A DNA stretch of 64,000 nucleotides from a virus. Below are positions 20,294-20,359 of this stretch, one piece after another. The DNA lies in UHGV virus genome UHGV-0060833, one strand, 5' to 3'. Under the pieces are notes generated by a model, which worked only from the letters and a program-made list of their open reading frames with translations, had not been told where the DNA came from and did not search any database. The translations under genes were made by a program, and so were the position numbers. Within the stretch, counting starts at the first letter, position 1, and every line of letters starts with the position of its first letter.

Positions 20294-20310
20294 ATTGCTC
20301 TAATAATTCC
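20294..20310 (+). promoter_or_regulatory. C1 operator-like site, left arm of operator-terminator-operator module
   Basis: ATTGCTCTAATAATTCC. Confidence 0.6.
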
Positions 20311-20318
20311 GTATTTTT

Positions 20319-20346
20319 AAAACGTGATGTACACTCATCACGTTTT
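20319..20346. terminator. Bidirectional hairpin terminator
   Basis: AAAACGTGATG-TACACT-CATCACGTTTT perfect 11-bp stem with T-runs on both sides. Confidence 0.6.
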
Positions 20347-20359
20347 TTATTAGAGCAAT
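20343..20359 (-). promoter_or_regulatory. C1 operator-like site, right arm, inverted orientation
   Basis: Reverse complement ATTGCTCTAATAAAAAA. Confidence 0.6.

Follow-up and report, generated by a model that had tools for sequence, protein, structure and literature searches.

Compact terminator–promoter junctions, in which a promoter fires within or just past the preceding terminator, are known from phage genomes; at such junctions upstream transcripts stop and a separately regulated transcript begins within a few bases.

Phage P1 has 22 operators for its repressor C1, which follow an asymmetric 17-bp consensus, ATTGCTCTAATAAATTT (PMC8546580). Between pmgQ and pmgR the P1 record (AF234172) enters OpmgRa and OpmgRb, formerly Op86a and Op86b, as monovalent C1-controlled operators and states that OpmgRa 'controls expression of pmgR and pmgS'; in the P7 record (AF503408) the same sites, as Op(sht[a]) and Op(sht[b]), carry the remark 'controls expression of sht operon'. 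The pair is thus already known, having been annotated in both reference records for some two decades. The hairpin that lies between the two operators is present in both records without a terminator annotation, which says little as the strong hairpin that follows pmgS is likewise unmarked.

Here we consider this region in a 64,000-nucleotide stretch of the UHGV virus genome UHGV-0060833 (the window), a P1/P7-type phage-plasmid with 99% identity to P1 and P7. The present work adds evidence, drawn from comparison of relatives, for termination on the + strand, and notes that the putative terminator overlaps the predicted promoter and the right operator. In our assessment, to which we attach a probability of about 0.7, the element is a packed control region for the pmgQ/pmgR boundary, comprising a terminator, the C1-repressed promoter PpmgR and two monovalent C1 operators. 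A stretch of 66 bp upstream of pmgR, a gene essential for infectious virions (PMC9024508), would thus combine a boundary between operons with a promoter and a pair of repressor sites. The element has little significance beyond P1 biology; the additions should be useful for annotating and engineering P1-type phage-plasmids.

The arrangement resembles that of C1 operators elsewhere in P1, e.g. Oppp/Op83, which lies just downstream of the −10 element of predicted PpmgN, O26/Op82, which lies over the pmgL promoters, and OpmgT/Op88, which like Op86a carries a TTGCTC-17-TAAAAC module. It is also like the compact phage junctions in general, beside which we set the predicted overlap of the −10 element and transcription start with the hairpin at pmgQ/pmgR. 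Unlike the overlapping inverted 17-mers at 6807 (+) and 6818 (−), which together span 6807-6834 and which we take to be a bivalent operator and probably Op72, serving the ban operon, the sites considered here are two distant inverted sites with a hairpin in between. The remaining operators of the window lack a hairpin of this kind at their side. A bivalent C1 operator, i.e. one with overlapping inverted 17-mers, was rejected for pmgQ/pmgR, as the sites are 32 bp apart and GenBank describes each as monovalent.

Layout of the pmgQ/pmgR gap

The 66-bp element (20294-20359) lies in the 81-bp gap between the pmgQ stop codon, which ends at 20292, and the pmgR ATG at 20374. Its features and those of the flanking genes are as follows.

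19591-20292, + strand: pmgQ (P7 hdmD), with which the upstream pmgL-pmgQ (hdm) operon closes, its TAA stop codon being at 20290-20292; from the open reading frame list and the P1/P7 annotation of the 99%-identical region.
20294-20310, + strand: C1 operator OpmgRa (former Op86a; P7 Op(sht[a])), ATTGCTCTAATAATTCC; a protein_bind feature ('phage repressor C1') in P1 and P7, with a perfect 13-nt core.
20295-20300, + strand: −35 hexamer TTGCTC of predicted PpmgR, inside OpmgRa; a prediction in the GenBank P1 annotation.
20318-20323, + strand: −10 hexamer TAAAAC of predicted PpmgR, after a 17-bp spacer and on the first bases of the hairpin 5′ arm; GenBank P1 annotation.
20319-20346, + strand: hairpin, AAAACGTGATG (5′ arm, 20319-20329), TACACT (loop, 20330-20335) and CATCACGTTTT (3′ arm, 20336-20346); the 11-nt arms are 100% complementary.
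20343-20351, + strand: T run TTTTTTATT, the predicted U-tract of the + strand terminator (indicative T-tail score 4.76) and the A-rich 3′ tail of OpmgRb, which is on the − strand.
20343-20359, − strand: C1 operator OpmgRb (former Op86b; P7 Op(sht[b])), ATTGCTCTAATAAAAAA; P1/P7 annotation, with a perfect 13-nt core.
20364-20369, + strand: Shine-Dalgarno-like AAGGTG, 4 nt before the pmgR ATG (20374); assigned from the sequence.
20374-20592, + strand: pmgR (P7 shtA), 72 aa; open reading frame list and P1/P7 annotation.
20594-21856, + strand: pmgS (P7 shtB), 420 aa, second gene of the C1-controlled unit; open reading frame list and P1/P7 annotation.
21876-21905, + strand: strong terminator-like hairpin and T run after pmgS, with 11 pairs, of which 6 are G-C, and the tail TTTTT (indicative score d ~ +12); likely the end of the pmgR-pmgS transcript.

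Read along the + strand, the element runs ATTGCTCTAATAATTCC GTATTTTT AAAACGTGATG TACACT CATCACGTTTT TTATTAGAGCAAT. The operators are inverted with respect to each other, with 32 bp separating their edges and 49 bp their centres; a repeat finder gives 100% complementary outer arms of 15 nt (20292-20306 and 20347-20361), which enclose 40 nt. The hairpin is centred on 20332.5, i.e. 6 bp to the right of the centre of the outer palindrome at 20326.5, such that 8 nt separate it from the left operator and it overlaps the right one by 4 nt. Op86b thereby covers the last four bases of the stem together with the whole T run.

A preliminary description of this sequence, made from its letters alone, had set out two inverted C1 operator-like 17-mers flanking a perfect hairpin with an 11-bp stem, exactly at an operon boundary; all of this stands, the P7 annotation placing the hdm operon upstream of the element and the sht operon downstream. 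Its further term, a symmetric element, holds roughly, in that the outer arms are inverted, and fails as exact symmetry, given the off-centre hairpin. Similarly, T runs do flank the hairpin on both sides of the + strand, as claimed, but as U-tracts they are not equivalent: the upstream run is unusable on either strand and the 3′ run alone could serve, on the + strand.

The surroundings of the element are closely conserved. Identity over 19500-21900 is 98.3-99.3% with phages P1, P7 and SJ46 and other punaviruses, identity over 20100-20700 is 100% with the E. coli plasmid NZ_AP027786.1, and the 20100-20700 stretch is found on 687 plasmids in PLSDB. The operators agree with the P1 and P7 entries in their 17-mers, in strand and in location relative to pmgQ and pmgR; the element and its 3′ border differ from P1 by point differences at 20311 (G in the window, A in P1) and at 20360-20361 (AT in the window, CT in P1). 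The G at 20311 falls in the spacer of predicted PpmgR (CCGTATTTTT, compared with CCATATTTTT); P1 and most relatives have A, and the G is shared with just one other distinct variant (L026). The AAGG/GGTG of the Shine-Dalgarno-like motif is retained in most variants. Searches against Pfam gave no match for PmgQ or PmgR and, for PmgS, only a sub-threshold match of a coiled-coil type, and Rfam at gathering scores gave no match at the pmgQ/pmgR element, its sole hits in the window being three tRNAs.

Conservation of the two C1 operators

Both 17-mers match ATTGCTCTAATAAATTT at 14 of 17 positions, the three mismatches in each falling within the variable last four bases, as they do at other sites in the window, and each contains the 13-nt core, ATTGCTCTAATAA, without a mismatch. 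The window holds 14 matches to ATTGCTCTAATAAATTT with three or fewer mismatches, compared with 0.33 expected from shuffles; perfect cores occur seven times in the 64 kb, two of these forming the pmgQ/pmgR element.

A first scan of IMG/VR for the element had demanded both arms and was thus uninformative about their conservation, so the scan was repeated using only the 20-nt core of the hairpin. The sample on which the following counts rest therefore comprises 110 complete copies selected by hairpin sequence alone, whatever their arms. In 110/110 of these the cores of both operators are intact. Variation in the left 17-mer (OpmgRa) is confined to positions 16-17, and the right one (OpmgRb) is identical in 108 copies, the other two having one extra T in the run. 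Over both IMG/VR scans the operator cores lie 40 nt apart, except for three length variants with 41 nt. A separate scan of genome contigs for relatives returned two Escherichia contigs only.

The 5 nt right after Op86b deviate from their commonest form in 43 of the same 110 copies. This segment between Op86b and the Shine-Dalgarno-like motif of pmgR (20360-20364) includes 4-5 hypervariable nucleotides, with at least seven variants among otherwise near-identical P1-type contigs, and contrasts with the invariant operators and hairpin that it borders.

The same layout extends to relatives that are considerably more diverged. In Cronobacter phage JK004 and in the Salmonella Newport plasmid pCVMN1543, both with ~70% identity in the flanking genes, operator, hairpin and operator occur in the same order with the same 40-nt gap; JK004 also encodes a C1 homologue of 76.7% identity and contains 11 perfect cores. 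In pCVMN1543 similarity to the P1 type at the DNA level begins 6-13 nt upstream of Op86a (~1494-1507 in our L004), and in Salmonella-type plasmids the element, pmgR and pmgS align to the P1 type, with the pmgQ homologue left unaligned at blastn sensitivity. This edge may be a mosaic junction, yet JK004 aligns upstream of it too.

On the basis of the annotation, the perfect cores and the strict conservation, we assign both 17-mers as C1 operators, and C1 would be expected to occupy both in vivo. Binding in vitro at Op86 is suggested by the GenBank notes, in which the former names Op86a and Op86b imply earlier mapping. These P1 operators are reportedly described by Lobocka et al. (2004); a full-text literature search returned no P1 text under operator names of the Op86/OpmgRa type. 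The conservation of the outer arms can be credited to C1 because the same 13-mer is present at operators that are not palindromic; with C1 binding explaining the arms, an explanation of their conservation at the RNA level is unnecessary.

A tblastn search with PmgS recovered the P1-type records, JK004 and five Salmonella plasmids, plus proteins of 20-24% identity in Pantoea, Citrobacter and Pseudomonas phage records; the latter lie in unrelated gene contexts and are of no use for testing the architecture. Among the distant relatives are two on Pantoea and Citrobacter plasmids (L127, 2501-3790, and L128, 2453-3754; 20-22% identity), which RefSeq names 'DNA-directed RNA polymerase subunit alpha C-terminal domain-containing protein', although Pfam gives no such match for PmgS.

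The hairpin as a predicted terminator

The hairpin folds at −13.4 kcal/mol (z = −5.9), and none of 200 shuffles folds as well. Four of its 11 stem pairs are A-U pairs contributed by the flanking A and T runs, leaving a G+C-containing core of 7 bp with four G-C pairs; stems of between 7 and 11 bp give −8.5 to −13.4 kcal/mol. In being a stem-loop directly followed by a 6-T run, located after a stop codon on the coding strand and with a positive score d, it is similar to the Rho-independent terminators of E. coli and its phages. It differs from the canonical examples in that the stem is short and G+C-poor, and in that the U-tract is common with a repressor site and the 5′ arm with a promoter −10 element.

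Comparison of relatives argues that the pairing is maintained. The P1 type has the core stem CGTGATG/CATCACG and the Salmonella/Cronobacter type CATGGTG/CACCATG, i.e. two compensatory pair changes separate the stem types, one G-C to A-U and the other A-U to G-C; stem and loop both differ between the clades, and the T run is constant. Across 20 distinct variants, 97.3% of cells are paired, a share that drops to 38-72% on sliding the partner. Covariation scores 0.209, compared with 0.151 in shuffles (none of 500 reaches the observed value) and 0.04-0.16 in slid controls, this covariation being a single split between two clades in which each compensatory pair counts as one event.

The polarity of the signal was gauged by a score of the d'Aubenton-Carafa type, the figures of which are indicative only. 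With the 7-bp core stem, d is ~ +11 on the + strand, similar to the ~ +12 of the pmgS terminator. On the − strand the stem runs into TTTT and next into AAAAA (AAAAATACGG), which gives a T score of 3.14 and a d of ~ −21. A bidirectional terminator was rejected, since the − strand score is negative and there is no U-tract there.

By covariation and score together, the hairpin thus behaves as a terminator that is maintained by selection and predicted to act on the + strand only, in line with its earlier designation; transcripts arriving from pmgQ would be expected to end at it. The papers searched contained no term-seq or RACE data for P1, and the P1 RNA-seq papers among them are at the gene level, without transcript ends at pmgQ/pmgR. 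A simple promoter and terminator scan of the window listed neither this hairpin nor PpmgR; in our reading the hairpin was missed because the scan extended the stem into the T run.

A predicted promoter, a working model and its alternatives

PpmgR, as predicted in GenBank, is weak, matching the sigma-70 consensus at 7 of 12 positions, and was passed over by the window scan, the criteria of which are too strict for a weak promoter; in JK004 its −10 element is degraded to TGAAGC. However, the prediction does not appear to be arbitrary, given a module that the element has in common with OpmgT (former Op88). At 22436 OpmgT is followed, at the same spacing as Op86a, by ATTTTTAAAAC, with no hairpin, and GenBank predicts a promoter of the same geometry there, P2pmgT, with its TTGCTC −35 inside OpmgT. 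Positions 22436-22467 and 20294-20325 thus have in common a 30-nt module, ATTGCTCTAATAA..C...ATTTTTAAAAC, in which 26 of 30 nt are identical, and which looks like a reused operator-promoter cassette. The operator at 35562 also has ATTGCTCTAATAATTCTTGATTTTTA. On the − strand between OpmgT and pmgT (22485-22507) there is a terminator-like hairpin with a T run, which would stop leftward transcripts.

Two other promoters were considered for the element and rejected. A leftward promoter from the TTGCTC of Op86b would have AGTGTA at the right spacing; as this is not a usable −10, no leftward promoter is expected. The hairpin region was also compared by eye with the −22 box region of the late promoter LPpmgL, to which it bears no resemblance, so a P1 late (Lpa-dependent) promoter was set aside.

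Genetic data bear on the activity of PpmgR in a limited way. Polar CRISPRi roadblocks in pmgO, pmgP, ppp and pmgQ are tolerated, and pmgR knockdown itself also scored as non-essential (PMC10695390). The tolerated upstream roadblocks, taken with an essential pmgR, fit with pmgR having its own promoter, if weakly so because the pmgR knockdown was likewise non-essential. We infer that PpmgR is active and that its transcripts start within the hairpin.

In the packed arrangement that we favour, transcripts from upstream, i.e. from the C1-controlled promoters P1pmgL/P2pmgL and PpmgN and from the late promoter LPpmgL, would carry the whole hairpin and so stop at the T run; the terminator, with its 7-bp G+C-containing core, extendable to 11 bp and followed by UUUUUUAUU, would thereby end the pmgL-pmgQ operon transcripts. 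Transcripts from PpmgR would start at ~20329-20331, either late in the 5′ arm or within the loop. Starting inside the hairpin, they would not include the 5′ arm, could therefore not form the terminator and would read on into pmgR-pmgS, with termination probable at the hairpin after pmgS (21876-21905). During lysogeny C1, with assistance from Lxc, would occupy both Op86a, over the −35 element, and Op86b, at approximately +14 to +30, so keeping the unit silent, with the A-rich tail of Op86b doubling as the U-tract of the terminator. There is a tension in this model, in that an efficient terminator here would leave pmgR dependent on a weak early promoter; since the role of pmgR is late (morphogenetic) and the gene lacks its own late promoter, some leakiness may be built into the terminator.

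The preliminary description had proposed that the arrangement might couple C1 binding with termination or antitermination, or loop with distant operators. These proposals found no support here, the packing of a terminator and a repressed promoter into 81 bp being simpler. One form of coupling was nevertheless considered further, namely repressor-assisted termination. Here C1 at Op86b would stall polymerase coming from pmgQ, so that in lysogens a modest terminator would become efficient; C1 inactivation would give more read-through into pmgR-pmgS, and the operators would act on elongation as well as on initiation. The overlap of Op86b with the last four stem bases and the whole T run is what such a mechanism would use, and the fusion is strictly conserved (6-T run in 108/110 copies; core gap 40, or 41, nt). 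Regulated read-through would also be useful, as pmgR needs late expression without a late promoter of its own. Further, JK004 has a second fusion of a hairpin and T run with a reverse ATTGCTCTAATAAAAAA, downstream of its bplB homologue.

Set against this, the upstream promoters are themselves C1-controlled or Lpa-dependent, leaving little transcription to gate in a lysogen, and polymerase from pmgQ would run into C1 at Op86a while the hairpin was still to be made. Simple packing explains the common A/T run, and at the place of the second JK004 fusion P1 has no operator. We thus regard repressor-assisted termination as unlikely. The same doubtful standing is given to the fuller proposal that the fusion of terminator U-tract and reverse C1 operator is a functional module, with C1 at Op86b acting as a roadblock that raises termination in lysogens at a terminator kept weak on purpose, and, jointly with it, to the proposal that on C1 loss PpmgR opens and, in addition, late LPpmgL transcripts read through into essential pmgR. 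If correct, a phage repressor would here act in a second, unusual way, by modulating termination, and the second JK004 fusion would be another instance of it. That fusion lies at ~13225-13290 on the − strand of JK004 (L132) and reads …CCCCGGCCACTGCTGGGGTGTTTTTTTATTAGAGCAAT; P1 has pmgF there, and no counterpart is annotated in P1 at that place.

A DNA-level role for the inner palindrome, i.e. as the site of a dimeric protein or as a cruciform, with the outer operators being unrelated neighbours, was also considered. A palindromic protein-binding site would likewise keep its symmetry through paired changes, so the compensatory changes also fit a DNA palindrome, and the overlap of the hairpin with the predicted −10 and start is where a regulator might bind. 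What separates the two is the one-sided changes. Six distinct transitions, several of them in variants with multiple copies, give G·U pairs in + strand RNA and do not preserve a DNA palindrome, and three, each in one distinct variant and so among the single-variant stem changes that may be sequencing errors, suit only the − strand. The preponderance of + strand G·U changes favours an RNA structure read in the direction from pmgQ to pmgR. The divergence of stem and loop between clades about a fixed T run, the location after a stop codon with a 6-T run, which is typical of a terminator, and the polarity of the score all point the same way, and a DNA site appears very improbable.

Least credible among the proposals that assign a function is an RNase III site, in which the operator arms would pair as RNA on read-through transcripts to give a helix of ~26 bp, the cutting of which would separate the cistrons. 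The 86-nt RNA does fold to a composite hairpin (−29.8 kcal/mol, z −8.2), but the helix has a 12-nt one-sided bulge, the terminator would form first during transcription, and C1 binding suffices to explain the conservation of the arms; as the arms never vary, covariation is silent either way.

That the hairpin is a functionless by-product of an AT-rich spacer between operators is similarly improbable, because, notwithstanding the A and T runs that supply four of the 11 pairs and the lack of a terminator call in the simple scan, shuffles do not reproduce its fold, two compensatory changes are found in relatives only ~70% identical in the flanking genes, and its conservation greatly exceeds that of the 5 nt following Op86b.

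Two other features of the window may be recorded. An inverted repeat of 13 bp with an 8-bp spacer, ATAACTTCGTATA GCATACAT TATACGAAGTTAT, at 35622-35655, which is presumably loxP, adjoins the operator cluster at 35015-35578 and c1 (34069-34920, − strand). P1 is known to carry tRNA genes; the three detected in the window are all on the + strand, at 7490-7562, 7568-7640 and 9075-9147 (Rfam RF00005, 65-73 bits).
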